Below are positions 5,186-36,786 of a stretch of 64,000 bases of DNA, piece by piece (position 1 is the first letter of the stretch; each line of letters starts with the position of its first letter). The position numbers were made by a program, and so were the translations under genes. The notes under the pieces are model-generated. The model was not told the DNA's origin. It did not search any database and was given only the letters and a program-made list of their open reading frames with translations. Origin of the DNA: a phage; sequence record OZ346212.1, one strand, 5' to 3'.

Positions 5186-6229
5186 ATGACTAAACCAGTT
5201 ATCCCTCTTGATATTTGGGCCAATCAGGATGTTGTGCTTGAAAATACGGGAGAGTTGAATAAGTCTCAACCAAAAAAAGAAGAGAGATTGAAAGGTTGGG
5301 ATATGACACAAAGAGTGGCATGTGAAGTTGTTAACTTTGAACTTCACATGCTTTCTGCGTGGTTAAAGCATTTAACAGAAGATGTTGTCCCAGGATGGGA
5401 TAATAGATTCTTAAGGGTCACTAATAATCTAGCAGACGTTCCAGACAAAGCTGCTGCACGTCAAGTTCTCAATGTATACTCGCCTGAAGAAATGGACGAT
5501 CTGTATGTTGACAAGTCTGGAGACATAATGACTCAGACTCAAACTTTAGGCCTTCAAAGAATCGAGTTTGCATCTGCGTCAACAGACAATGCGGCAATAT
5601 ATACCACCATAACTCCAGACAAGACGACGATGGACTTCTGGATTATGGACAACATCGGTGGTGCTGACGGCACAGACCTTGATGATCCTTCTCACCAAAT
5701 AGACGGGTTCCGTTGGAGATTTCAACCTTCTGGTGGGCAGCCTGTGTTTTCGGCTATGAAGCTCAATGCTATAACTGCCAACCGTGCAAGACTGGCTATC
5801 CAAGGAAATCTTGAATGCAACGATGCAAAAAGTTCCTCTGCAAATGCCAATGCGGTCACGATACCAAGAGCCACTGTTAACGGACAACAATCCTGCGGAA
5901 GCGCTCAAATAGGTGGAAGAGTTGATTGTAACGATGAAACCGTTAGAGGCCAATATGCAACCGTTGGTGGAAGAAACGTGGTCCGCAGGGTAAACGGTAA
6001 CAGCGCAGACGGTAGTGGTAACCTTACTGTCCCTATGCCCAGTAGAGGGGTTGACGATGTAAGGATAGCGAACCGTTTCAAAACCACCTACAGAGAGTCA
6101 AGGGTCTACCCTGGACATGTGATGTGCTCTGGTAACTACGCTTATAAACACCCTTATCAAGGTGATTACTGGACAGGTGCTATCCAAAAACTTGTAAACG
6201 GTCAATGGATCACTATATCTTATGCTTAA
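5186..6229 (+). CDS. tail fiber / receptor-binding protein, paralog B (347 aa)
   Basis: ATG 5186 preferred over GTG 5183 by alignment with paralog A (MTKPVIPLDIW vs MSKPSFPLEIW); conserved C-terminus YWTGAIQKLVNGQWITISYA. Confidence 0.8.
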   Translation: MTKPVIPLDIWANQDVVLENTGELNKSQPKKEERLKGWDMTQRVACEVVNFELHMLSAWLKHLTEDVVPGWDNRFLRVTNNLADVPDKAAARQVLNVYSPEEMDDLYVDKSGDIMTQTQTLGLQRIEFASASTDNAAIYTTITPDKTTMDFWIMDNIGGADGTDLDDPSHQIDGFRWRFQPSGGQPVFSAMKLNAITANRARLAIQGNLECNDAKSSSANANAVTIPRATVNGQQSCGSAQIGGRVDCNDETVRGQYATVGGRNVVRRVNGNSADGSGNLTVPMPSRGVDDVRIANRFKTTYRESRVYPGHVMCSGNYAYKHPYQGDYWTGAIQKLVNGQWITISYA

Positions 6230-6240
6230 AAAGAGGGTAA

Positions 6241-6507
6241 ATGAAACTAACTCAGTTTTTATGGGGACTGGTTGCGGAATCTGATGACCCTACGAAAGTA
6301 TCCCAATCTAAGCTATGGTCGAACATAGGCATGGTGGTGATGACTGGGGTGTTTATTCATATGGGGTATAATGATACGCTTCCTGAATGGTATGCGTGGA
6401 TATATGCACCTTCAGTAGCCTGCCCCCAGCTTATTAGCAAATTCATCTCGCTCCGGTGGGGTTGCCAGCACCCTGACCACGTTAAAAACGAAGAGCAAAA
6501 AGCTTAA
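6241..6507 (+). CDS. hypothetical small protein with hydrophobic segments (88 aa), accessory gene downstream of fiber paralog B
   Basis: ORF with SD AAGAGGG upstream, 11 nt after fiber gene stop. Confidence 0.55.
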   Translation: MKLTQFLWGLVAESDDPTKVSQSKLWSNIGMVVMTGVFIHMGYNDTLPEWYAWIYAPSVACPQLISKFISLRWGCQHPDHVKNEEQKA

Positions 6508-6516
6508 GGAGAAATC

Positions 6517-8262
6517 ATGGCGCAAGACATGACAAGCTTCGAGCAGGCGGTAGATCAAGTAATTGTTGATTCTGAACGTTTGCACTTGATTGTCAACGGT
6601 AACGCTGTGGATGAAGTTGTCGTAGAGGATGGGACCACTATCCCTACGGTACGAAAAGCCATGCTTGACACCCTTTATTTTAAAACGCCACCAATCCCTT
6701 GGGCGTATGGTGCATCCACAACAGTTTTTAACCAGTTGTATGAGTTTAAAGGGGATACAGGCACTCAGTGGTGGTACGCCCCAGCAGCATCAAAATCTAA
6801 CCCGGTTAGAATGCCAGCAGATCCTTCACAATCTCCAAACTGGAGATTATACACCGACTCTGCAGTAATGGCAAAATACTACGCAAAACTTAACAGCCCA
6901 AGGTTCGAAGGTGACCCGCGAGTACCTACACCTCCAATGGACGATAAGTCAGAGTCCATAGCAAACACAGAGTTTGTTGTTGACTATGTTGATAGCATAT
7001 TTAAAGCCATGGAGGGGATGAAAGTTACTGTAGGATCTTTGGTGGTAAAAGGTCTTACAGAACTCGCTAACACTATAGTTGGTGGCACCCTTACCTTACA
7101 TGGACCTGTTAATGGGGCAGATTCTACTGCACGCTTTAGGAATCTAATCCTCACGGCAAATACTTCTACACTTACTTTTGCGTGGAGCGATCCTAAGCAT
7201 GCAGACTGGAGAAGTACAGAGCTGCAACCTCATGAAGTGTCCACCCACAGGGTTATAGCTGACACTATAACTTCTGGGAAACCAGTGGCTAATAATAACG
7301 ATGTGCATTTTGATGGTCTGGGTAATAACTTTTTTGACTACGTGTACATTCGTGGTAATGCCATGAAGGCAGCAACCGAACCGACATTGCAGGTAGATGG
7401 GACCACCAGGGTTAAGAACCTTGAGGTGACAGGTACCGTTACAGGGATAACATACTCTGTCGATGGCACCATGATCTACCCTAGCTATATTGAAAGCACT
7501 GGTGATGCATTGATAAATGGCGATTTGGAGGTTGGCGGGTCTGTAGTTATTCGAGGTACGGCCTCTATCCAAAACATAGCTCTGAATACCTTAAGAGTCA
7601 ATGAGCGTGCAACTTTTGAAGGAGAAGGGCTTACAGCCAACAAAGGTGTAATTACCGAGCTGACAACAACCACTTTAACTGCAACAGCTGCAAACTCTGA
7701 AAACTGCAACGTTACCCGCAACTTGCAGGTAAATGGAGATGTCAGTTTAAACGCAGCAGGGCCTGGCACCACCTCTGTTCACAACCTTGAAATATCCGGC
7801 ACGGTGACTGGGTGGTTGCCTGACTTCTCTAATGTCACCTTTGTCTGTAATGGCATTAACTCCAGTGGCAAGATAACCACCTCTCAAGAAATTGAGGCGG
7901 GTAAAACCATTACTGCCCCTACTTTCCACGCAGGAAAGGTAGATTTTGATTTAGAGGAGGTTGACGCGTCCAGTGGGACATGGACACCTAACGGGCAGGC
8001 CAGTATGTATGTTGTTCACGCGAAAGGGGATTTTACAATAGGACAGTGGCCTGGGACATCAGCGGAAGATAAACCTTATCCATTCACTGCGGTTATCTAT
8101 GTAATTCAGGATGCTGTAGGTCACAACGTGACTTTGCACGATAAGTATGCTATCCTGTCGGCAACACCTGTTATTAACAACAAGGCTAACAGTGTTACCT
8201 TGCTGCAATTAACGTATTGTGGTGTTGGTGATATCGTAGACGTAGTAATTGCACAACGTTAA
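6517..8262 (+). CDS. putative tail fiber protein (581 aa)
   Basis: SD AAGGAGA upstream; large ORF in structural operon, Thr/Gly/Asn/Val-rich composition typical of fiber shafts. Confidence 0.7.
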   Translation: MAQDMTSFEQAVDQVIVDSERLHLIVNGNAVDEVVVEDGTTIPTVRKAMLDTLYFKTPPIPWAYGASTTVFNQLYEFKGDTGTQWWYAPAASKSNPVRMPADPSQSPNWRLYTDSAVMAKYYAKLNSPRFEGDPRVPTPPMDDKSESIANTEFVVDYVDSIFKAMEGMKVTVGSLVVKGLTELANTIVGGTLTLHGPVNGADSTARFRNLILTANTSTLTFAWSDPKHADWRSTELQPHEVSTHRVIADTITSGKPVANNNDVHFDGLGNNFFDYVYIRGNAMKAATEPTLQVDGTTRVKNLEVTGTVTGITYSVDGTMIYPSYIESTGDALINGDLEVGGSVVIRGTASIQNIALNTLRVNERATFEGEGLTANKGVITELTTTTLTATAANSENCNVTRNLQVNGDVSLNAAGPGTTSVHNLEISGTVTGWLPDFSNVTFVCNGINSSGKITTSQEIEAGKTITAPTFHAGKVDFDLEEVDASSGTWTPNGQASMYVVHAKGDFTIGQWPGTSAEDKPYPFTAVIYVIQDAVGHNVTLHDKYAILSATPVINNKANSVTLLQLTYCGVGDIVDVVIAQR

Positions 8263-8310: not shown

Positions 8311-11300
8311 ATGCTTCCAATCCCTTTGCTAAAACTTGGTCGTCATTTCCTCGATAAGAGGGGTGGAATTAAGGAACTTGCTGTTCTGTCATACCCAATA
8401 GACAACAGTGATGGTACAAGCAACACAGTATCCTATGTAAATAGCTTAGCTATACTTTTTGATGATGGTCAGCTTAATATTACTGGCTATAACAAGTTCG
8501 GAGAGTGCCGCACTGGGGATCGTAGCCCTATAAACTATCCGAGCGAAACAGCCTGGAATGTTGATCATGTGTGGAGAGCAGACCGCGCGTTTGTGATCCG
8601 GACTTTTGATAACCAGTTTTTCTACATCGGCTGCACTGCAGGTCTTATCGGATCCACTGCGGCAGGCGGTAATGATGTTTGCGTAAACGAGTGGACACCA
8701 CTCCCAGAGCAGATTGTTAAAGGATTGCACCTTGACACCCACCCAGAACGCCTTATTGAGGTGATGGGCGGTATTAACAACACTGTCTGGGTTATTGCAG
8801 AGGCAGAAGGTACTGGCATACTTAACCTGTATGGATCTGGTAACAACACCTACGGATCTTTGCATGTAGATAAAAATCAGCATGCAACCCCTGTAAAGAT
8901 TGGTGAGACATCGGAAAATCCTGAAACAGGCCCTTGGAAAAACCCAAGCATCAACTGTGAGGTGCATGACAACTCTGTTATTTTCGGTGGTCCTAGGGGT
9001 TTCTGGATTGCTGGATACGACTTTCTGAGAAATAACAGTAGAAACGACCTTGTTTGGCCTCCTGTGCAGATTACTCGTAACGATTTGAGGGGCATTCCTG
9101 CAGATGAGGAGTGGAAAGGGTTTATGTGTGGTCCTAACGGGGCAGTAATTGCTACACAGAGGATGCATAGACCCGATGACCAGCAGCTTGTTAACGTATT
9201 TTATGGTCAAAACATTTGGGGAGATGATACATGGCGGGAACTGAATATCACCTACACCCATGAGGTAATGATGGCTCGTGGGTACGGCACAAGTGGCATT
9301 TTCTTCAATAATGGCACTAAGCAGTATCGTGGGTTCTCTCGCAACTTATGTAATGATATTGGTGCACAATCTGCAAACAATAGTCCTAGGGCCGATTTTA
9401 TCCACTATCAAGCTCTTGCTACAGCTAAATATGTTGAGCAACGCCTGCCAGTCAGCTGGACAGAGAGTGTTTATTTCCAAGGCATCCACAGAGAAGGTTT
9501 CTTAGGGACCTTTACTGTTGTTAATGGTAAACTTTGGTGGTCAGGTATCCCAAGGGGAAGTTTTACAGGCTCTAATAACCTGTTTGGCGGCAGACTTAAT
9601 AGTCAGGGGTTCACAGAGGTTCCTGAGAATTGGTATAAAAATGTCCCAGTAGACAGTTGGGGCGTTGATGATATTTTCGACGTTAATGGTGTTAGCAGTG
9701 TTAGCAATATCTACATTGGTGACACGGTCAAGATGAAATTGAAGCCTCAGCCAGAGGGAGCTACGTTCATCATTGACAAGATTGAACTGGTGAATGCTGC
9801 AGGTACGGTTGTTACAGATGCAAATTACCAATTCTCCACCAACTGGAACCACGGCGGGGCCAACGAAGTTGTTGTTACCCAGTATAACAGAAATGTTAAC
9901 AGACGTGGCCTGTACTCTGTAAAAATAACCTATCATGACAAGCATGGCACAGGCAGAACTCACACGACAAGGACTTTGAACTGGAACACCATAGTTCCTG
10001 CGTATCCGTCCAACGGCAAGTGGCATACCGTTGGTAGAAACAAGCAGTTCCATGTTAACGATACTGTATACTTTGGGCTGAATGGGACCCAGCCTGCAGT
10101 AGAAGGGGATACATCGTATATGGTCAGACTCCACAGAATGGATGCTGGATCAGTCACTTATGATGTGACCCAAGAGATCTACGATCAAAGACGCGCCACG
10201 TATGACAATATTGTGAAAACACAAGCCTTGTGGGAGTTCAATCCTAATGGCAAGGGTGGTAAAATGTTGCAGGTTAATGAGCAGAACGGAACGTCGTTGA
10301 CTGTTCACGAACACCCAGACCCTTGGCCTGATCCTGGAAAACCTCACCCGGGAGCTCGTACACTGAAAATTGTCAGCCATGATGCAGGATATTTCGGAAT
10401 ACGCTGGGAAGCTACAGTAAGATATGTCGACGGGACAACAAACAACATAGGGATTACACTTGGCGGCACTAGTGAAGATAGCTCGCTGAAAATTGCCTAC
10501 ACGCCCAGAGGTATCTCTATTGATAATATGGATGTTGTTCGCAATGGTTACGGCGATGTGAATGTCAAAGTTACTCTTGGCGAACATCTTGGTGGGGAAA
10601 GGATCATCATGTATGCCTTTGATCATGATCCACGCACCAATGGAACTTATGCAAATCAGGCATGGAGTTACCTGATAAATGCACCTGAGCCGAATACTAA
10701 AGAGTTCTACTATGGCATGAAGCGAGATGTGTGCAAGAAAACAGGAACACATGACTGGATTGCTATCTGCGTTAAAGATGAGCGCACAGCTTGGGATGAG
10801 CCTGTTAACAGATGGTTCATAGGTATTCCTACCAGAAGTGATAAGTATGTCGCAGAATATATTGTATGCATGGGCGGTACCAACCTAAACATGTGTTGGA
10901 ACGAAGATGTAAACAAATACTCTGATTATGACTATATGAGGGATTACTCTTGTAATTTGTGGTTTAACCAAACTACAGGTTACCCTCCAAGACAGGCGAG
11001 AGTAAACCCTGCAATCTTCACAGACACGCAGGTTTTCTTGACAAAACAGGCCAACGAGGTTCAGACCTTCAAGAATAAATACGATCCTAACAAGTGGTTC
11101 TACAACTGTTACGGCGCATTTTTCTGGGGACCTGGTGAGTTACCTGGTGGTGGATCTTGCTTGAATGAGGCAACTTACGCAAGTGACTACATCATGGGGC
11201 AGGTCAAGAAGTATAAGATAATCCCCGGTCCTGAGACTTTGGGCAATGCCGTTGACCCTTATATCATCATGACTGCACTGAGATCAAACATGGATGGGAC

Positions 11301-28043: not shown

Positions 28044-29369
28044 ATGAGTAAAACCAAATTAGAACTAACCTGGATAGGTAAAAACGAGCGCAAAAAGTTA
28101 GAGCCGCACATTTTGTTAGAAGATTCTAGCAAGTCTTACCACAGCCAGAAAGTGACCGAAAACGATATTTTTGATAATAAACTGATTTTTGGAGATAACT
28201 TATTAGCATTGAAGGCGCTAGAGCAAGAGTATGCAGGCAAAGTGAAGTGTGTTTACATAGACCCGCCATTCAATACCGGGAGGGCTTTTGAGCACTACGA
28301 TGATAGCCTGGAGCATTCCATTTGGCTGGGCTTAATGAGGGATAGGTTAGAAATAATTCGTAATCTTCTAAGTGATGATGGGGTAATATTCGTTCACTTA
28401 GATGATTGCGAAATGGCGTATTTAAAAGTTTTGATGGACGAGATTTTTGGTCGTGCAAATCAGTTAAATACCATATCGATGACCACAAATTCCCCTTCGG
28501 GATTTAAGGCAACAGGAGCCACAGTTTTCTCCACAGCAAACTTTTTGCTTGTATATGCAAAAGATCGCACCCAGAAACCGCTTAATAAAATCTATATACC
28601 TAAAGGGTACGATACAGGATATAACAAATACCTATTAAACCCGGATGACCATTATAAAAATTGGACGTGGTGCAGTATTGCCGATGCGTTTGCAAAGGCC
28701 AATGGCTATAAGGATGCAAAAGAAGCCAAGAAAAAACTGCCTGACACATTCGATGATGAATTAGCACAATTCGCAATTGATAATGCAGAACGTGTATTTC
28801 AATCTGTTGCAATTGGTGGTGGTGCTAAAATAAAGAGAAAAGAAACTATCGAGAAGTCAAAGAAAGATAGGGATAAGGTTTATGTACATCCAAATGAGGA
28901 TGTTGAAGGATTTTATATCGCAAATGGTAGGCAAATGGTCTTTTACTCCAATAGGCTTTTGGAAATTGACGGTGAGATGCAACCTGCGGAACTAATAACT
29001 GATGTTTGGACAGACATTAGTTGGAATGGAATAGCAAATGAAGGCGGCGTTAGTTTCAAAAATGGGAAAAAACCAGAAGCGCTTTTGAAGCGGATTTTCG
29101 AAATGTGTACGCGAGAAGGCGATTTGGTATTGGATTCATTCGGTGGTTCGGGAACTACTGCTGCTGTAGCTCACAAGATGAAAAGACGTTGGATCTCAAT
29201 CGAGCTAGGTGATCATTGTCATACCCATATTATTCCGCGCTTAGAAAAAGTGATCGATGGCGAAGATCAAGGTGGTATTTCTAAGTCTGTAAGCTGGCAA
29301 GGTGGTGGTGGCTTCCGTTATTACAAACTCACCCCGGCCTTAGTTGCGAAAGATAAGTCTGATCAATAA
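28044..29369 (+). CDS. DNA methyltransferase, N6-adenine/N4-cytosine class, beta-type motif order (441 aa)
   Basis: Catalytic motif IV IDPPFNTG precedes AdoMet motif I LDSFGGSGTT; SD AAGGAGAG. Confidence 0.8.
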   Translation: MSKTKLELTWIGKNERKKLEPHILLEDSSKSYHSQKVTENDIFDNKLIFGDNLLALKALEQEYAGKVKCVYIDPPFNTGRAFEHYDDSLEHSIWLGLMRDRLEIIRNLLSDDGVIFVHLDDCEMAYLKVLMDEIFGRANQLNTISMTTNSPSGFKATGATVFSTANFLLVYAKDRTQKPLNKIYIPKGYDTGYNKYLLNPDDHYKNWTWCSIADAFAKANGYKDAKEAKKKLPDTFDDELAQFAIDNAERVFQSVAIGGGAKIKRKETIEKSKKDRDKVYVHPNEDVEGFYIANGRQMVFYSNRLLEIDGEMQPAELITDVWTDISWNGIANEGGVSFKNGKKPEALLKRIFEMCTREGDLVLDSFGGSGTTAAVAHKMKRRWISIELGDHCHTHIIPRLEKVIDGEDQGGISKSVSWQGGGGFRYYKLTPALVAKDKSDQ

Positions 29370-29382
29370 AGAGTACAATCAA

Positions 29383-29688
29383 ATGATGAAACGTTATAAA
29401 CCATACACTTTTGAAATCGATTTCGAACTTGACGATATGTTCACTGTGGAAGCTCAGGCAGTTGTCCAGTTGCCAGACCCAGAGTGTCGTGATTCTGATG
29501 TTGACTATTATGGATTTAGACAGATCACTGATGTGCATGTTTACCACAACGGTGAAGAGGTGGACTTCCACCAATTGCCAAACGATATGCGCCACTCAAT
29601 TTACAAACGTGCAGCCCGTGAACTAGAGTCCTATCTGGATGCAGCGACGACAGCAGCTGCATTTGCTGAAGAAGTGGGAGGTTTCTGA
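29383..29688 (+). CDS. hypothetical protein (101 aa; track start 29344 is TTG overlapping MTase gene)
   Basis: First in-frame ATG after the MTase stop. Confidence 0.5.
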   Translation: MMKRYKPYTFEIDFELDDMFTVEAQAVVQLPDPECRDSDVDYYGFRQITDVHVYHNGEEVDFHQLPNDMRHSIYKRAARELESYLDAATTAAAFAEEVGGF

Positions 29689-30083
29689 TGATTACAGGTG
29701 TGAAGATTATCCAATACCACTTAACCAAATTGGAAGATGCTGAAAAAGAGCTTGCAGAAGTTCTAAATAGTGGATATACTTTGCTATCATGCGCCTGCTC
29801 AGACACCTACGCTGTGTGGACACTTATCCGGAAGGAGGAGCCTGCAGGGATCTTGGTGCCAAACCCTAAGATTATCAGTGAAGTGGATGACTGCTCTCAG
29901 GACGGCCTGTCAGAAGACTGGGAAGCATGGGAAGGTGGTGAAAACCCTGCACCAGGTAAGTGGGTAAAATACAAACTACGTAGCGGTGCACAGCACGCTG
30001 GATACTCTGATAACCTGGACTGGAGTCATTCTTCACCGGAATCATTGGTAAGTGCATATGATATCGTTGCTTTTCAGGAATAA
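29688..30083 (+). CDS. hypothetical protein (131 aa)
   Basis: SD GGGAGG, start overlaps upstream stop. Confidence 0.6.
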   Translation: MITGVKIIQYHLTKLEDAEKELAEVLNSGYTLLSCACSDTYAVWTLIRKEEPAGILVPNPKIISEVDDCSQDGLSEDWEAWEGGENPAPGKWVKYKLRSGAQHAGYSDNLDWSHSSPESLVSAYDIVAFQE

Positions 30084-30095
30084 GGAGAGAGTGTT

Positions 30096-30578
30096 ATGTC
30101 AGATTTTATGTGGAAAGTAGGTTATGCCTCTCCTGAAATGTGCGAGGCTTGCTTTGTAAAAATAGGCCGCGAGGATATTGACAAAGTGATCTTTAAGTTT
30201 CGTGATGTATCTGTGATCGGCAACCGAGTGCTTAAGCACTTAAAGAATCTGAAGCTCACCAAAAAGAAGTTCTTCGGACTTTTCGAAGAGAAAGTTGATG
30301 CTTGGACCCATTGCATTCAGGAAGCTAAATCTCACTACAGTGCTATCGTTACCCCAGAACGGGTAGCCAAGATGGAAGGATTCATCAACAGCACAGAGTT
30401 TGAGTGCCTAAAGGCTGCCCTTAATAGTTATCCAAAGTGCCTCAAACACCTTGACAAGTATGTAGAAAAGGATGGGGAAATGTATCTCACCCTGGACGCA
30501 TATTATGAGATGCAAGAAATTTTAAATTTAGATTTGACATTGGTATCCACCGAGTATACAATAGGTATCCGGGTTTAA
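30096..30578 (+). CDS. hypothetical protein (160 aa)
   Basis: SD AAGGAGAGAG upstream. Confidence 0.65.
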   Translation: MSDFMWKVGYASPEMCEACFVKIGREDIDKVIFKFRDVSVIGNRVLKHLKNLKLTKKKFFGLFEEKVDAWTHCIQEAKSHYSAIVTPERVAKMEGFINSTEFECLKAALNSYPKCLKHLDKYVEKDGEMYLTLDAYYEMQEILNLDLTLVSTEYTIGIRV

Positions 30579-30584
30579 CACTAG

Positions 30585-30611
30585 GCCCTGCCCGAAAGGG
30601 TGGGGCTTTTT
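30585..30611 (+). terminator. rho-independent terminator with GAAA tetraloop
   Basis: GCCCTGCCC-gaaa-GGGTGGGGC followed by TTTTT; near-identical hairpin recurs at 41573. Confidence 0.7.
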
Positions 30612-30629
30612 GCATTAGGAGACAGCAAA

Positions 30630-31394
30630 TTGAAATTTATCTACAAAGAACACTACCACAAAGGTGTTGTGTGGAGTCTATTTGACGGGTCTGGTGGTGC
30701 AGTCATTGACTGGGCAAAAGCTGGGTACCTGTGCCTGTGCTTTAATGCAGAAGGCGCTGATCACGGCAGTTATGCAGAGGTTATAACCGATCATCCCAAC
30801 ATTCACTATGTGGATTATTGGATTGACCCATGGTTCCCTCAGGAAACTTTTTGCATGTACCCAGCTCCAGACTTTATTCTTGCATTTCCTCCGTGCACGC
30901 ATTTAGCGGTATCAGGTGCTGCACATTTTAAGAAAAAGCTGGCTAAGGACCCTCTGATCCAAATTAATGCCGTAAAGGATGCTCGGGTTGCGGAAGAGCT
31001 GGGAGAGATTTACGATTGCCCGTGGCATGTAGAGAATCCTGTGGGTGTTATGTCCACACTGTGGCGCAAACCTGATTACCGTTTTCATCCTTCTGACTAT
31101 GGTGGGTATTTACCGGAGGATGATGTAAACCCTTGGTTTCCTGAATTTATAGCTCCACGTGATGCCTATCCAAAAATAACTTGCGGCTGGATAGGTAATG
31201 GATTTATAATCCCGCCCACAAAACCTGTCCCGCAAATAGTTGACGCGGTTAGCGGGTATTCTATGCAACACGCCAAGCTGGGTGGAAAGAGTGCAAGAAC
31301 GAAGATGATTCGAAGTCTCACACCACGTGGCTGGGCAAAAGCCGTATTCTTAGCAAACGAGCCTGTAGTAAGGAGCAGAATTAATGGGAAGTAA
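30630..31394 (+). CDS. DNA (cytosine-5)-methyltransferase-like protein (254 aa, TTG start)
   Basis: Motif I LFDGSGG, motif IV FPPCTH (PC dipeptide, Q replaced by T), motif VI VENPVG; TTG start at 30630 with SD AGGAGA because track ATG 30600 lies in the terminator hairpin. Confidence 0.5.
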   Translation: MKFIYKEHYHKGVVWSLFDGSGGAVIDWAKAGYLCLCFNAEGADHGSYAEVITDHPNIHYVDYWIDPWFPQETFCMYPAPDFILAFPPCTHLAVSGAAHFKKKLAKDPLIQINAVKDARVAEELGEIYDCPWHVENPVGVMSTLWRKPDYRFHPSDYGGYLPEDDVNPWFPEFIAPRDAYPKITCGWIGNGFIIPPTKPVPQIVDAVSGYSMQHAKLGGKSARTKMIRSLTPRGWAKAVFLANEPVVRSRINGK

Positions 31395-33520: not shown

Positions 33521-35944
33521 ATGAGCATGTGGTCGTTCGACTTTGAGTCATCCGGTTTGCTGGAAGACCCAGATCTTTATTATCACTGCGGCCTGTTTAA
33601 AGAGCTGAATAAGAACCGTTTTATGCTGTTCCTTCCTCTAAATGACCGCACACACTACTCCGAGGAGGATATAGAAAAGGCTAAGAACTTCATTCTGGCA
33701 AAGAAAACTCTTTATAAAGATTTTGAAGTTCGCATAGCAGATTTTTCAGAGTTGGAAGGTTGGCTTACAGGAAATTCTGACTGGTCACCAACAGCTTTGA
33801 ACTGCCATAACTGCTACAGTTATGACTTTATGCTGATGGAAAGATTATCTGGTATTCATTTTGATATGTTCCGTGATCCTAAGTGTATGGGGACTATCAA
33901 CGATCACCAGGTTAACCTGTTTGATACGTTGGCGATGAGCCGAATCTTGTGGCCTGATCGCCCTTTACCAAAAGGTTGTCCGGACTCTGTATTCAACCCG
34001 GTTACTAAGAAAATGCAGCCTGTTGGTCCTCACGGCCTTATGGCATGGGGCTACGCCCTTGGTAACCAGAAAGTTCAAATTGATGACTGGCGCGATCTTC
34101 CGTTATGGAAGTATGTGGATCGTGTATTTGAGGACGTTATCATCCAGGAGCTGCTCTGGAAAGAGCTGGTAGCGGAATCAAAAGGTGTATTCTACGGCAA
34201 ATCTGACATGCAGAACTTTATGTACGATCCTGCCAAAGAGAAGCCGAAAGGGTTCAAGAAGATCACCTGGAAGAACGCATTACGTCGAGGCATGTTGCAG
34301 CACTTCCTGATGGAGCTGCAGGCCCGTCAGGGTGTATACTTCGACATAGATGGGGCTATTGCTTTACGTGACCGCTGCGATGCGTGGATGAAAGAGATCG
34401 CTGATCGTGTTGAACCACAACTGCCTTTAAAAGAGCTGTCAATGTCTCAGCGGCCCAAGTTCCCTGAAAAGCCGTTTAACCAAGATGGGACAATCTCTAA
34501 TAATGGTTGGAAATGGTTAAAAGATAAGCTTGGCTATCCTGTGGACATGAGTGCTTTAGAGTTCAAAGCCCCACCTAAGCGAGCATTTACCTCTACAGGA
34601 GATGTCAGTAAGATGGGGATAAAATGGTGTGAAGAGATGGGCTGCAAAGACCACGATAAGATGGCTGATTTCTTGAGAGGTTATATTAAGGGCACCTCCA
34701 CACCACAACCTTTACCTAAAGAGCTGATGGATCAGGCAATAAGCGATCTGCAACAGAAGCGAATGCCTGACTGCAAGATACCTATGAAAATCAGCAATCA
34801 GGACGACATTAAGCGATACCTGATCAGTGCTGGTTGGCTTCCGACAATGTGGAGAACTAAGGATGTAACTAAGGACAGCAAGAAGAAAGCTCTACCTGAT
34901 GCAGATGTTGATGCACGAGTATATGCATACATGGACGAGCTTTTAGAGTCAGAGTATTGTGACCTAATTATCAACTTCTGGAACAAAACTGATGCTAAGT
35001 TTCAGACAACAGTGCACAAGTTCCGAAGCTTTCCTAACTCCGAAAGGATTAAAAAGGAAGTGTTCGGGAAAATACGCAGAAAAGCCAGGGCACTTATTAC
35101 TTCTCCGCAACTGAAAGATACGTTTGGACACCTATGTCCGAATCTTGAAAAATTGAACGGAGAGATGGCTAAAGATATCGTCTTGTGGTTATCATTGCGA
35201 AACCGCAGATCGGTCCTTGATCCAATCAAGGAGGATAAGGTTGATACTGGTCTTCTTAATCACCCACGTTTGAAGATTGACCATAAGCTTCCTGCTAAAA
35301 GCTCTGGATTAACAAACACTTCCCGACAGAAACACAGTATTTGTGCAAACATGCCTAAACCATCTCCTAAAGTGGTTATGGGTAAAGAGATGCGTAGCTT
35401 GTGGGGTGTTCCTCCTGGATACTTTGAGATCGGTATTGACGGGTCCAACTTAGAGCAGCTTATCGGGGCTTGGGGTGCCTTTGAGTTCGACAACGGCTTG
35501 TACTATGATGTTGTAAGTAACGGGGACGCACACCAAAACAATGCTGAGGCATATACAAAAGTAGCAGGCAGAGAGGTGTCTCGTAACGACGGTAAACCTA
35601 TCACGTATGGGGTTATGTACGGGGCACAAAAAGATAAAGTTGCAGATATGCTGGATATCTCCCCAGAGTTGGGGCAAAGGGTGATCGATGCACTTTGGGA
35701 TGCCAACCCAGGTCTTAAGGGGCGCAAAGAGGATCTGGAGAAATTCTGGGAAGCAACAGGTAAGAAGTTTATCTACTCTTTTGATGGTCATGCTATCTGG
35801 ACCCGATCTAAACACTCTTTACTTAATGCATACCAACAAAATGGCGGCGCATCGTTGTGTGACTTAGTTGGGATACTCATGCACCATCAAATGGTGAAGC
35901 GTGGGTGGTACGATGAAGGTGTTCGTCGTATTATCTATTACCAT
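33521..35944 (+). CDS. DNA polymerase, family A, exon 1 (exo domain through motif B)
   Basis: Exo I SFDFES; motif A ...EIGIDGSNLEQL...; motif B ...RNDGKPITYGVMYGA...; the ORF reaches a stop 2 codons after the proposed 5' splice site and lacks motif C. Confidence 0.8.
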
Positions 35945-36786
35945 AAATAACATTGTGGCTTCGTGCAGTGATGCACGTCGAAAACCTCTTTAATTGACGG
36001 GAAGGCTAAGTTGACTTTTACACCTAAACATGGTAAAAGCTCAATATGCTAATCCGCAGCGAAGACTAAAGGGGTGTAGTTAAAATGGCTAGATCAGTTG
36101 AGTATCACGGATATACCGTGTTTGATGATGGAACAATACCTTTATCGAAACGTGATCATACAACAATGTTTTGTTTTGATAATGGTCGAGGTTACCTTTG
36201 CGTAACCATGTTCATCGAGGGGAAGCAGTGCACAAAAGGTGTCCACCACTTGGTTGCTGAATGCTTTGTATCAAACCCTGATCCTGAAAGGCTCACATGG
36301 GTGAACCATAAGGACGGAAACAAATACAACAATGCATACTGGAACCTTGAATGGACCACCCCTGGTGGAAATATCAAACACGCTTATGATAATGACCTCA
36401 GAGTAAGGCCAGTCGGTGAGTATAATGCCAACGCTGTACTGACCGAGGATGAGGTAACGGAGATTTGCGAACTGTTACAAAGTGGTTTACGACAATGCGA
36501 GATTAGGGATCTTGGGTATCCTTATGAGACGGTCAGAGCCATAAAGCAAAGAAGACAGTGGAAACATATCTCTAAAAACTACACCTGGTAGTAACGTTCA
36601 GAGACTATCGAAAGCATAGCGCCAACATAAATTGGTGCGAAGAAGCGAGTAGAGTAGACCAGCAAGTGCGGTCGAAATGGGAGGTGCCTTGGTAACAAGG
36701 TAGTGAGATAGTCCGATCCATACAGGAAACTGTATGGCTGTGCACGTAATGGTGCGGGGTAGCTTAACGACCTACCTGAACTATTG
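35945..36786 (+). ncRNA. group I self-splicing intron (842 nt) interrupting the DNA polymerase gene
   Basis: Core elements P aattgacgggaagg (35992), Q aatccgcagcgaag (36051), R gttcagagactatcg (36596), S gagatagtccgatcc (36705); exon ends in U pairing with intron GUGG; intron ends in G; removal restores RIIYYH-DEYQLQV (motif C). Confidence 0.75.
36085..36591 (+). CDS. HNH homing endonuclease encoded within the intron (168 aa)
   Basis: HNH_3-like motif VHHLVAECF...VNHKDGNKYNNAYWNLEWTT; lies between Q and R elements (P6-loop position). Confidence 0.8.
   Translation: MARSVEYHGYTVFDDGTIPLSKRDHTTMFCFDNGRGYLCVTMFIEGKQCTKGVHHLVAECFVSNPDPERLTWVNHKDGNKYNNAYWNLEWTTPGGNIKHAYDNDLRVRPVGEYNANAVLTEDEVTEICELLQSGLRQCEIRDLGYPYETVRAIKQRRQWKHISKNYTW

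Follow-up and report, generated by a model that had tools for sequence, protein, structure and literature searches.

Two putative orphan DNA methyltransferases in the replication module of a Vequintavirus: a host-derived, truncated type III Mod and a compact C5-type enzyme

Two methyltransferase-type genes were examined in a 64,000-nucleotide (nt) stretch of phage DNA (sequence record OZ346212.1), which is called the window throughout and is numbered from its first letter. The genes, termed here open reading frame (ORF) A and ORF B, lie between positions 28,044 and 31,394. It is likely that this locus encodes two independent, sequence-specific orphan methyltransferases within the phage replication module, both probably acting on newly made phage DNA. 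Judged by sequence comparison, ORF A is an Escherichia coli type III mod gene that was captured recently by a Vequintavirus ancestor and truncated at its C-terminal end. An earlier note, made from the letters of the window, had placed both genes at the coordinates below and had read LFDGSGG, FPPCTH, and VENPVG in ORF B, and all of these were recovered.

28044..29369, + strand: ORF A, 441 amino acids (aa), a type III Mod-type beta-class methyltransferase without the C-terminal domain; corresponds to naswa_99
30630..31394, + strand: ORF B, 254 aa, TTG start, a compact C5 methyltransferase of the phage 'PPCT' family (phrog_757); corresponds to naswa_103

Window positions 28044-31394 were 100% identical to the Escherichia phage naswa (MN850595.1), a Vequintavirus (rV5-like myoviruses), and 97–99% identical to about 100 further Vequintavirus records. 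In naswa, ORF A is labeled 'putative adenine methyltransferase' and ORF B 'putative site specific DNA methylase'. The BASEL orthologues are labeled 'putative N6 adenine methyltransferase' and 'Dcm-like C5 cytosine methyltransferase', respectively, and more than 100 Vequintavirus genomes in the databases carry a methylase annotation for both genes. The comparisons described below directly established the identity of the genes, the fold, the equivalence of the motifs, the origin and truncation of ORF A, and the purifying selection on ORF A.

Class and host origin of ORF A

The catalytic and cofactor-binding motifs of ORF A were located as follows.

28260..28271, + strand: motif IV, DPPF (aa 73-76), the amino-methyltransferase catalytic loop, which aligns to DPPY of the EcoP15I and Helicobacter pylori Mods
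29139..29153, + strand: motif I, FGGSG (aa 366-370), the S-adenosylmethionine-binding loop

ORF A matched the Pfam family PF01555 (N6_N4_Mtase) with an expectation value (E) of 3.8e-42 and 145.2 bits against a cut-off of 26.7. In ORF A, motif IV precedes motif I, and the target-recognition domain is placed between the two. This is the order of the beta class and agrees with the class that the earlier note had assigned from DPPF preceding FGGSG. The PADLOC profile MTase_III (PDLC03636) matched with E 2e-204 over profile positions 2-444 of 575. The nearest solved relatives were type III Mods, namely those of H. pylori (6k0w, E 1.3e-28), EcoP15I (4zcf, E 2.2e-24), and Mbo45V (7dsu). Because these nearest relatives in the PDB are N6-adenine type III Mods, the N6-adenine class is supported, and ORF A is probably an N6-adenine methyltransferase, while the DPPF motif by itself is also compatible with N4-cytosine methylation. 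The profile, the PDB relatives, and the identity to an E. coli Mod all place ORF A among the type III Mods. The C-terminal domain that contacts Res is not present in ORF A, as coverage of PDLC03636 stops at 444 of 575. No res gene adjoins ORF A, and no Res-like gene is annotated across the surrounding 50 kb; its neighbors are small ORFs with unknown function, ORF B, and a primase/helicase gene.

The closest match in a large-database search was an E. coli protein of 567 aa with 96% identity to ORF A, and homologues with 60–75% identity, mostly of 560–600 aa, were found in bacteria of many phyla. Using megablast, a matching mod gene was detected in 29 of 5,426 complete E. coli genomes (~0.5%), and its location was chromosomal every time. 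Nucleotide identity to the E. coli mod was ~94.9% from ORF A nt 1 to nt 1315-1318, where homology stops. At the protein level, BLASTP against a chromosomal 568-aa Mod of E. coli (WP_024226319.1) gave 421 identities in 439 residues, with just three substitutions between aa 180 and 330, the expected target-recognition domain. In strain 2014C-3011, the 568-aa Mod matched the whole of PDLC03636 (E 7e-285), and the next gene encodes a 912-aa protein (WP_024226320.1) that matched PADLOC REase_III (E 9e-191). This mod/res pair sits within a defense island beside tRNA-Sec, together with integrase remnants (NZ_CP027591.1 5062284-5071633). The same island also contained a mad1-like helix-turn-helix gene, a DrmD-like SNF2 helicase (PADLOC E 1e-208), AbiD, and a hypothetical gene, and an ArdA fragment was seen near the Mod and Res genes.

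The end of homology coincided with a deletion in the phage copy, which was resolved by aligning window positions 29300-29440 to positions 10257-10400 of the 2014C-3011 locus extract.

29355..29385, + strand: truncation scar, where 11 nt of the E. coli mod are missing, with the frame shift KDK-SDQ-stop and the TAA stop at 29367-29369

The 11 nt are missing directly after ...AAAGATAAGT, and the reading frame is thereby shifted into the TAA stop. Downstream, the mod homology continues out of frame for about 25 nt (the host ...INKEYN codons) and then ends. The deletion scar, the residual out-of-frame homology, and the full-length bacterial relatives together establish that the transfer ran from host to phage, a capture and truncation that the earlier note had missed. 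The ratio of nonsynonymous to synonymous substitution rates (dN/dS) between the phage and host copies was 0.09, with dS of 0.19, which shows that the truncated ORF A is kept under strong purifying selection. The 441-aa form with the frameshifted tail is common to the Vequintavirus records (~88 phage records).

Aligned to the EcoP15I Mod, ORF A ends at host residue 440, equivalent to EcoP15I residue ~521. In EcoP15I, the Mod methyltransferase domain extends to residue 516 and the C-terminal domain spans residues 539-644 (PMC4490356). The N-terminal and methyltransferase domains mediate Mod dimerization, the dimer is able to methylate on its own, and Res is extensively contacted by the C-terminal domain of a single Mod protomer (PMC4490356). 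As the cut at ~521 falls between residues 516 and 539, ORF A corresponds to a Mod stripped of its Res-docking domain. A literature search turned up no specific description of a captured Mod without the C-terminal domain.

Related short forms were seen elsewhere. A contig of Logan SRR16894903 carries a 444-aa Mod homologue (gene 6001-7335) with 84% identity to ORF A, also without the C-terminal domain, in an unrelated large phage with NrdD/NrdG, HNH, PhoH, ClpP, and a Dam-type methylase. The finding points to a spread of such shortened Mods among phages. A further relative, of 442 aa, had an SNF2/ResIII helicase and a TnsA-like nuclease on its flanks.

Fold and motifs of ORF B

The following elements were assigned in ORF B.

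30681..30698, + strand: motif I, FDGSGG (aa 18-23; LFDGSGG is aa 17-23), which aligns with FAGLGG of M.HhaI and FDG of DNMT3B
30885..30902, + strand: motif IV, FPPCTH (aa 86-91), with Cys89 as the predicted nucleophile; aligns with C81 of M.HhaI and equals C82 of K42 Dcm
31029..31046, + strand: motif VI, VENPVG (aa 134-139), with Glu135 as the predicted N3-protonating residue; aligns with E119 of M.HhaI and equals E128 of K42 Dcm
31167..31190, + strand: motif VIII-like segment, Y180-x-K182-x-T184-C-x-W187, in place of the canonical Q-x-R-x-R
31215..31277, + strand: hypervariable loop (aa 196-216), a candidate minimal target-recognition element
31311..31331, + strand: motif IX-like segment, RSLTPRG (aa 228-234), at the beginning of a long C-terminal helix

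The AlphaFold2 model of ORF B, computed from the 70-sequence family alignment described below, had a predicted local distance difference test score (pLDDT) of 93.1 and a predicted template modeling score (pTM) of 0.91. Foldseek comparison of this model to the PDB returned almost exclusively the catalytic domains of DNMT3A and DNMT3B, plus one prophage C5 methylase (best E 1.1e-5). As modeled, the fold of ORF B is that of a C5 methyltransferase, beyond a generic Rossmann core. The C5 motif assignment of the earlier note also survived profile-profile alignment. Compared by hhalign to six canonical C5 methylases, the ORF B family aligned over 111 columns with E 2.5e-4, and significance was reached just with this six-sequence profile (E 0.14 to the M.HhaI sequence alone). 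In this register, F18DG falls on F18AG, C89 on C81, T90 on Q82, and E135NP on E119NV of M.HhaI, which confirms the motif IV substitution. A HMMER profile alignment of the ORF B family to DNMT3B and M.HaeIII was also obtained, in which motif IV of DNMT3B reads PCN. As DNMT3A and DNMT3B are active with PCN, a glutamine after the cysteine is not needed for the formation of 5-methylcytosine (5mC). DNMT3 retains the motif VIII R-x-R and a C-terminal motif X.

Downstream of the core, the motifs of ORF B were more divergent. Y180 and W187 were invariant, and K182 and T184 were found in 69 of 70 family sequences, with K182 equivalent to K175 of K42 Dcm. From the sequence pattern and the strand order of the model, the Y-x-K-x-T segment appears equivalent to motif VIII. 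A conserved 30-residue insertion (PxxYGGYLP...RDAY) precedes this position in the family. RSLTPRG was placed on RKLTPRE of canonical enzymes by a weak hhalign match (E 0.05), and R228, S229, P232, and G234 are each at least 90% conserved in the family. R233 was considered as the counterpart of M.HhaI N304 or DNMT3A R891 and was dropped because RSLTPRG fits motif IX better. The loop of aa 196-216 had the top column entropy downstream of the core, with indels of up to 16 columns, and was the sole such stretch there, in keeping with the view of the earlier note that so short a protein leaves little room for target recognition.

The PPCT family and its characterized member

PHROG 757, 'DNA methyltransferase', matched ORF B with E 1e-86. 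Homologues of ORF B formed 3,553 clusters at 90% identity and 1,021 at 50% identity, nearly all of 200–260 aa. Three homologues with 55–56% identity to ORF B passed PF00145, scoring 24.7–28.5 bits where 22 are required; the matches covered profile positions 4-94 (motifs I-IV). The family was present in 1,504 of 50,697 phage records, and canonical C5 methylases in 1,668 when M.HhaI was used as the query. The M.HhaI query sequence was validated indirectly, as the 1,668 phage records reached up to 46% identity and those shown were mostly annotated as cytosine or DNA methylases. Carriers of the ORF B family include Drexlerviridae, Dhillonvirus, RB49-like phages, phiKO2, and many Klebsiella siphoviruses.

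In an alignment of 70 family sequences, down to 33% identity, the invariant residues were C89, G96, E135, P137, P154, Y180, W187, and P195, and all are present in ORF B. The residue after the catalytic cysteine was T in 63 of the 70 sequences, D in three, E in three, and Q in one; 'PCT' is thus the family norm and not a lesion. A phmmer search of ORF B against PDB sequences gave motif I of M.HaeIII as the sole match (E=1), and the family profile gave marginal matches (E ~0.3) and no significant chain in the same sequences. The compact PPCT-type fold was also seen as a domain in very large BFVD proteins from uncultured phages (A0A6J5SE15, 1397 aa, and A0A6J5NPY6, 1126 aa), which carry helicase/UvrB-like labels and matched the ORF B model by Foldseek with E 3e-11 and 5e-9, respectively, at 22–26% identity.

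The characterized homologue is the dcm gene (711 bp) of phage K42, the trigger of the retron Ec86/Eco1 (bioRxiv 10.1101/2023.08.16.553469). The K42 genome is 95.4% identical to KarlJaspers/Bas06 (same preprint), whose Dcm-like protein (711 bp, 236 aa) is nearly identical to the K42 enzyme and shared 54% identity with ORF B (E 2e-87). By liquid chromatography-tandem mass spectrometry (LC-MS/MS), wild-type K42 Dcm yielded high 5mC on the multicopy single-stranded DNA (msDNA) of the retron, and 5mC was low with C82A/E128A/K175A/K176A or the empty vector (bioRxiv 10.1101/2023.08.16.553469). The corresponding KarlJaspers residues C82 (FPPCT), E128 (ENPVG), and K175/K176 (YFKKTC) are C89, E135, and K182/I183 in ORF B. 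The earlier note had taken the PCT motif as a possible sign of an inactive enzyme or of different chemistry. This is not borne out, given T in most relatives, the invariant Cys and Glu, the activity of DNMT3 with PCN, and 5mC formation by the 54%-identical K42 enzyme. ORF B had no NCBIfam match and differs from Dcm in architecture, and the 'Dcm-like' BASEL label was assumed.

Restriction sensitivity and site counts

The BASEL study found the Vequintavirinae 'exceptionally susceptible' to the tested restriction-modification systems and concluded that they are without effective general protection. The Vequintavirinae set of that study includes phages with a locus 97% identical to that of the window. 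The earlier note had proposed extensive genome modification against host restriction, a proposal that seems unlikely for two sequence-specific orphan methylases in such susceptible phages. The window contained 122 CCWGG sites (observed/expected 0.81), and neither CCWGG nor GATC counts in the window showed an avoidance that would reveal a specificity. Compared to Markov expectation across window positions 1-64000, several palindromes were scarce, namely GGCGCC (0 observed/6.9 expected), TGGCCA (1/9.0), TGCGCA (1/5.5), CGATCG (2/9.7), and GGGCCC (2/7.0). CTAG was also scarce in the window, with 64 observed and 133 expected. The under-representation of the GC-rich 6-bp palindromes may reflect restriction-site avoidance.

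Proposed activities and alternative explanations

For the phage studied here, we infer catalytic activity of both proteins, as well as the modified bases, the target sites, and a protective role. ORF A keeps the N-terminal dimerization, catalytic, and target-recognition domains and is predicted to form a stand-alone Mod dimer. This dimer would place N6-methyladenine on one strand of the asymmetric site read by the host system, and the methylated progeny would be immune to that single host type III system. The probable benefit of ORF A to the phage is immunity against one specific type III system of E. coli. In ORF B, Cys89 of PPC would attack C6 of a flipped-out cytosine while Glu135 of ENP would assist by N3 protonation, the methyl group of S-adenosylmethionine would pass to C5, and the enzyme would then be freed by beta-elimination. 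Target choice would lie in the short hypervariable loop at about aa 200-216 and the conserved loops flanking it, with no separate domain. Protection by ORF B probably covers one class of sites that contain cytosine, and it may come at a cost, through triggering of retron Ec86 or type IV restriction.

Several points weigh against this reading of the locus. ORF B had zero matches in Pfam (PF00145 even at E 10) and NCBIfam. Its motif VIII is Y-x-K-x-T and not Q-x-R-x-R, and a canonical motif X (GN[AS]V) is not recognizable, as the hhalign placements from sub-alignments were non-significant and mutually inconsistent. The 5mC evidence for the family comes from a preprint, in which the CCWGG specificity of K42 was assumed from E. 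coli Dcm and supported by msDNA mutants only (bioRxiv 10.1101/2023.08.16.553469). The characterized homologue also belongs to another loop subtype, so the target of ORF B may differ. For ORF A, full activity of a Mod without the C-terminal domain is a prediction. Finally, the restriction sensitivity of the Vequintavirinae means that any protection by ORF A or ORF B must be narrow, and a search of the literature on Vequintavirus methylomes found nothing specific.

An alternative for ORF A is a mainly dominant-negative role, in which mixed dimers with the host Mod would impair Res docking and disarm the host type III enzyme during infection; this is unlikely in our view. The domain layout of EcoP15I, with dimerization by the N-terminal and methyltransferase domains and Res contact by the C-terminal domain (PMC4490356), is compatible with such a role, as ORF A has the first two Mod domains without the third, and 96% identity to the host Mod favors mixed dimers. 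The argument is purely inferential, however, and EcoP15I Res also touches the methyltransferase domain of ModA, so docking may survive the loss of the C-terminal domain (PMC4490356). Moreover, pre-formed host enzyme would meet the incoming DNA ahead of any phage protein synthesis, and the intact catalytic motifs with low dN/dS over the catalytic domain argue for selection on methyl transfer. It is very unlikely that one or both proteins are inactive, with ORF A a decaying mod fragment and ORF B a degenerate C5-like fold used for DNA binding or as a decoy. Such decay would suit the frameshifting deletion that cut ORF A, the lack in ORF B of the motif IV Q, the motif VIII R-x-R, and motif X, its place below every curated C5 model, and the published assays in which Vequintavirinae were without evident restriction protection. 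It does not suit the dN/dS of 0.09, the intact catalytic motifs, and the cut exactly at a domain boundary in ORF A, nor the conservation of the truncated form in ~88 phage records and of a similar 444-aa form in a second phage lineage. ORF B, for its part, is intact at all invariant positions of its family, which comprises more than 1,000 clusters at 50% identity and includes one active homologue.

ORF B could instead transfer a non-methyl group, for example carboxymethyl from carboxy-S-adenosylmethionine as does the phage enzyme CmoX, or modify something other than cytosine in duplex DNA, with PPCT reflecting a different chemistry; we consider this highly improbable. CmoX has an SPPC motif resembling FPPC of ORF B (PMC12783734), its cofactor is native to E. 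coli in amounts sufficient for CmoX activity, motif VIII of ORF B is without the canonical arginines, and the K42 study sought 5mC alone. In addition, a very weak alignment (E ~0.1) put the GGKS loop of ORF B on the motif X FGNSV, with Lys at the carboxylate-binding spot of M.MpeI N374K and CmoX R350, but this alignment is non-significant and would invert the order of motifs IX and X. The K42 homologue gave a clear 5mC signal that depended on catalytic residues, and DNMT3A and DNMT3B, the nearest neighbors of ORF B in structure, are conventional 5mC enzymes with a motif IV likewise devoid of Q. The annotation of the surrounding 50 kb, where no profile search was made, lists neither CmoA nor an amide ligase. 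More speculatively, ORF A might serve as a 'Trojan' dominant-negative anti-type-III subunit, or ORF B might use a cofactor such as carboxy-S-adenosylmethionine in some hosts, the latter suggested by the absence of the motif VIII arginines and motif X and by the Lys-containing GGKS loop. We favor neither of these and think them quite unlikely. Two sequence-specific methyltransferases acting on phage DNA remain the preferred reading of the locus.

Gene context and upstream signals

Both genes are on the + strand within the replication module, where the order is rIIA/rIIB, a Dda/Pif1-like helicase, ORF A, three small ORFs, ORF B, the primase/helicase, and DNA polymerase.

29383-29688, 29688-30083, and 30096-30578, + strand: three small ORFs between ORF A and ORF B (naswa_100 to naswa_102)
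30534..30621, + strand: signals upstream of ORF B, a promoter, a terminator hairpin, and AGGAG (consensus matches)

The PHROG matches of naswa_100 to naswa_102 were families with unknown function, and a PADLOC scan gave no match for these three or for ORF B. The possibility that naswa_100 is the detached Mod C-terminal domain was rejected, as there was no homology past the INKEYN remnant and no PDB relative. Over window positions 29344-29688, this ORF, which starts at the mod truncation scar, did have weak PHROG matches labeled 'DNA methyltransferase' (phrog_1573, E 2e-5; phrog_2060, E 8e-3).

A sigma-70-like promoter (TTGACA-17-TACAAT, 11 of 12 consensus positions) was predicted at 30534-30562. 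About 20 nt downstream of it, an intrinsic-terminator-like hairpin with a T-run was found at 30583-30608. The AGGAG ribosome-binding site at 30617-30621 is followed 8 nt beyond by the TTG start of ORF B at 30630. With the predicted promoter directed immediately into a terminator, ORF B and the primase/helicase gene may be governed by attenuation or by a 5' stabilizing hairpin. The 3' end of ORF B overlaps the start of the primase/helicase gene (31384) by 11 nt, which suggests co-expression with the replication genes.

Farther downstream, in window positions 33521-36591, the 809-aa DNA polymerase ORF terminates at 35950, and a separate 168-aa ORF lies at 36085-36591. The naswa equivalent of this region is a single 925-aa coding sequence, so the genome in the window is not naswa throughout. 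The region resembles that of relatives such as APECc02, annotated as 'DNA polymerase (x2) | HNH endonuclease', and the polymerase gene appears to be interrupted, or trailed, by a homing-endonuclease insertion. Among the database records, MG065635, MG065659, and about 14 other 'Campylobacter phage' entries were ~98% identical to E. coli Vequintavirus at the methylase locus, and other 'Campylobacter phage' records matched E. coli siphovirus-type homologues of ORF B. The Campylobacter jejuni host labels on these E. coli-like phage records look wrong, or look like the result of contamination.

Significance

Both genes are already annotated and are of known system kinds, and the ORF B family has an experimentally supported 5mC-forming member. 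The new points are modest and consist of the recent host origin and domain-boundary truncation of ORF A and of the abundance, compactness, and poor modeling of the ORF B family, and the field as a whole is little changed by them. ORF A provides a worked example of phage capture of a host mod trimmed at the boundary of the Res-docking domain, and its host match allows a prediction of the E. coli strains to which the phage is pre-adapted (~0.5% of complete genomes). The compact PPCT family is under-described, though it is about as common in phages as the canonical C5 methylases, and no measured target specificity was found for it. ORF B may be among the smallest C5 DNA methyltransferases. As a 5mC writer is a possible liability in the presence of retron Ec86 or type IV restriction, carriage of ORF B may affect the host range of Vequintavirus, with relevance to phage therapy and defense.

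Comparison with known systems

With the type III Mods of EcoP15I (4zcf), H. pylori (6k0w), and E. coli (WP_024226319.1), ORF A shares the beta core with DPPF/FGGSG-type motifs, the N-terminal domain, and the target-recognition domain. Unlike a full type III Mod, it is without the final 128 residues, which form the Res-contacting C-terminal domain, and without an adjacent res.

ORF B has in common with the canonical C5 methylases (PF00145; M.HhaI, M.HaeIII, and E. coli Dcm) the fold, motifs I, IV (Pro-Cys), and VI (Glu-Asn), and probably IX. Covalent catalysis is the predicted mechanism for both. In contrast to these enzymes, ORF B is 70–220 residues shorter, lacks a distinct target-recognition domain, scores under the PF00145 and NCBIfam thresholds, and carries PPCT rather than PCQ, ENP rather than ENV, and no recognizable motif X. 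The DNMT3A and DNMT3B catalytic domains (PDB 6u8p, 4u7t, and others) are likewise compact and without Gln in motif IV, with PCN-DLS compared to the family consensus PPCT-DLA. They are ~14% identical to ORF B and act as an oligomer with regulatory domains, and membership of ORF B in the DNMT3 clade is not claimed. CmoX (PDB 8yf3; PMC12783734) is a phage enzyme that has the Pro-Pro-Cys of motif IV as in ORF B. Its solved chain has 333 aa, SPPC together with Arg350 of motif X, at the position of M.HhaI N304, are its defining features, and a phage cmoA and a ligase usually accompany it; none of these features was confirmed for ORF B. The Dcm of K42/KarlJaspers is the closest in design, with FPPCT, ENPVG, Y-x-K-x-T-C-x-W, GGKS, and RSLTPRG all common to ORF B in proteins of ~236–254 aa. 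K42 and KarlJaspers are Drexlerviridae siphoviruses, whereas ORF B comes from a Vequintavirus myovirus. K176 is replaced by I183 in ORF B, and the variable loop before GGKS reads NPGW in KarlJaspers and GYSMQH (the GYSxQH subtype) in ORF B.

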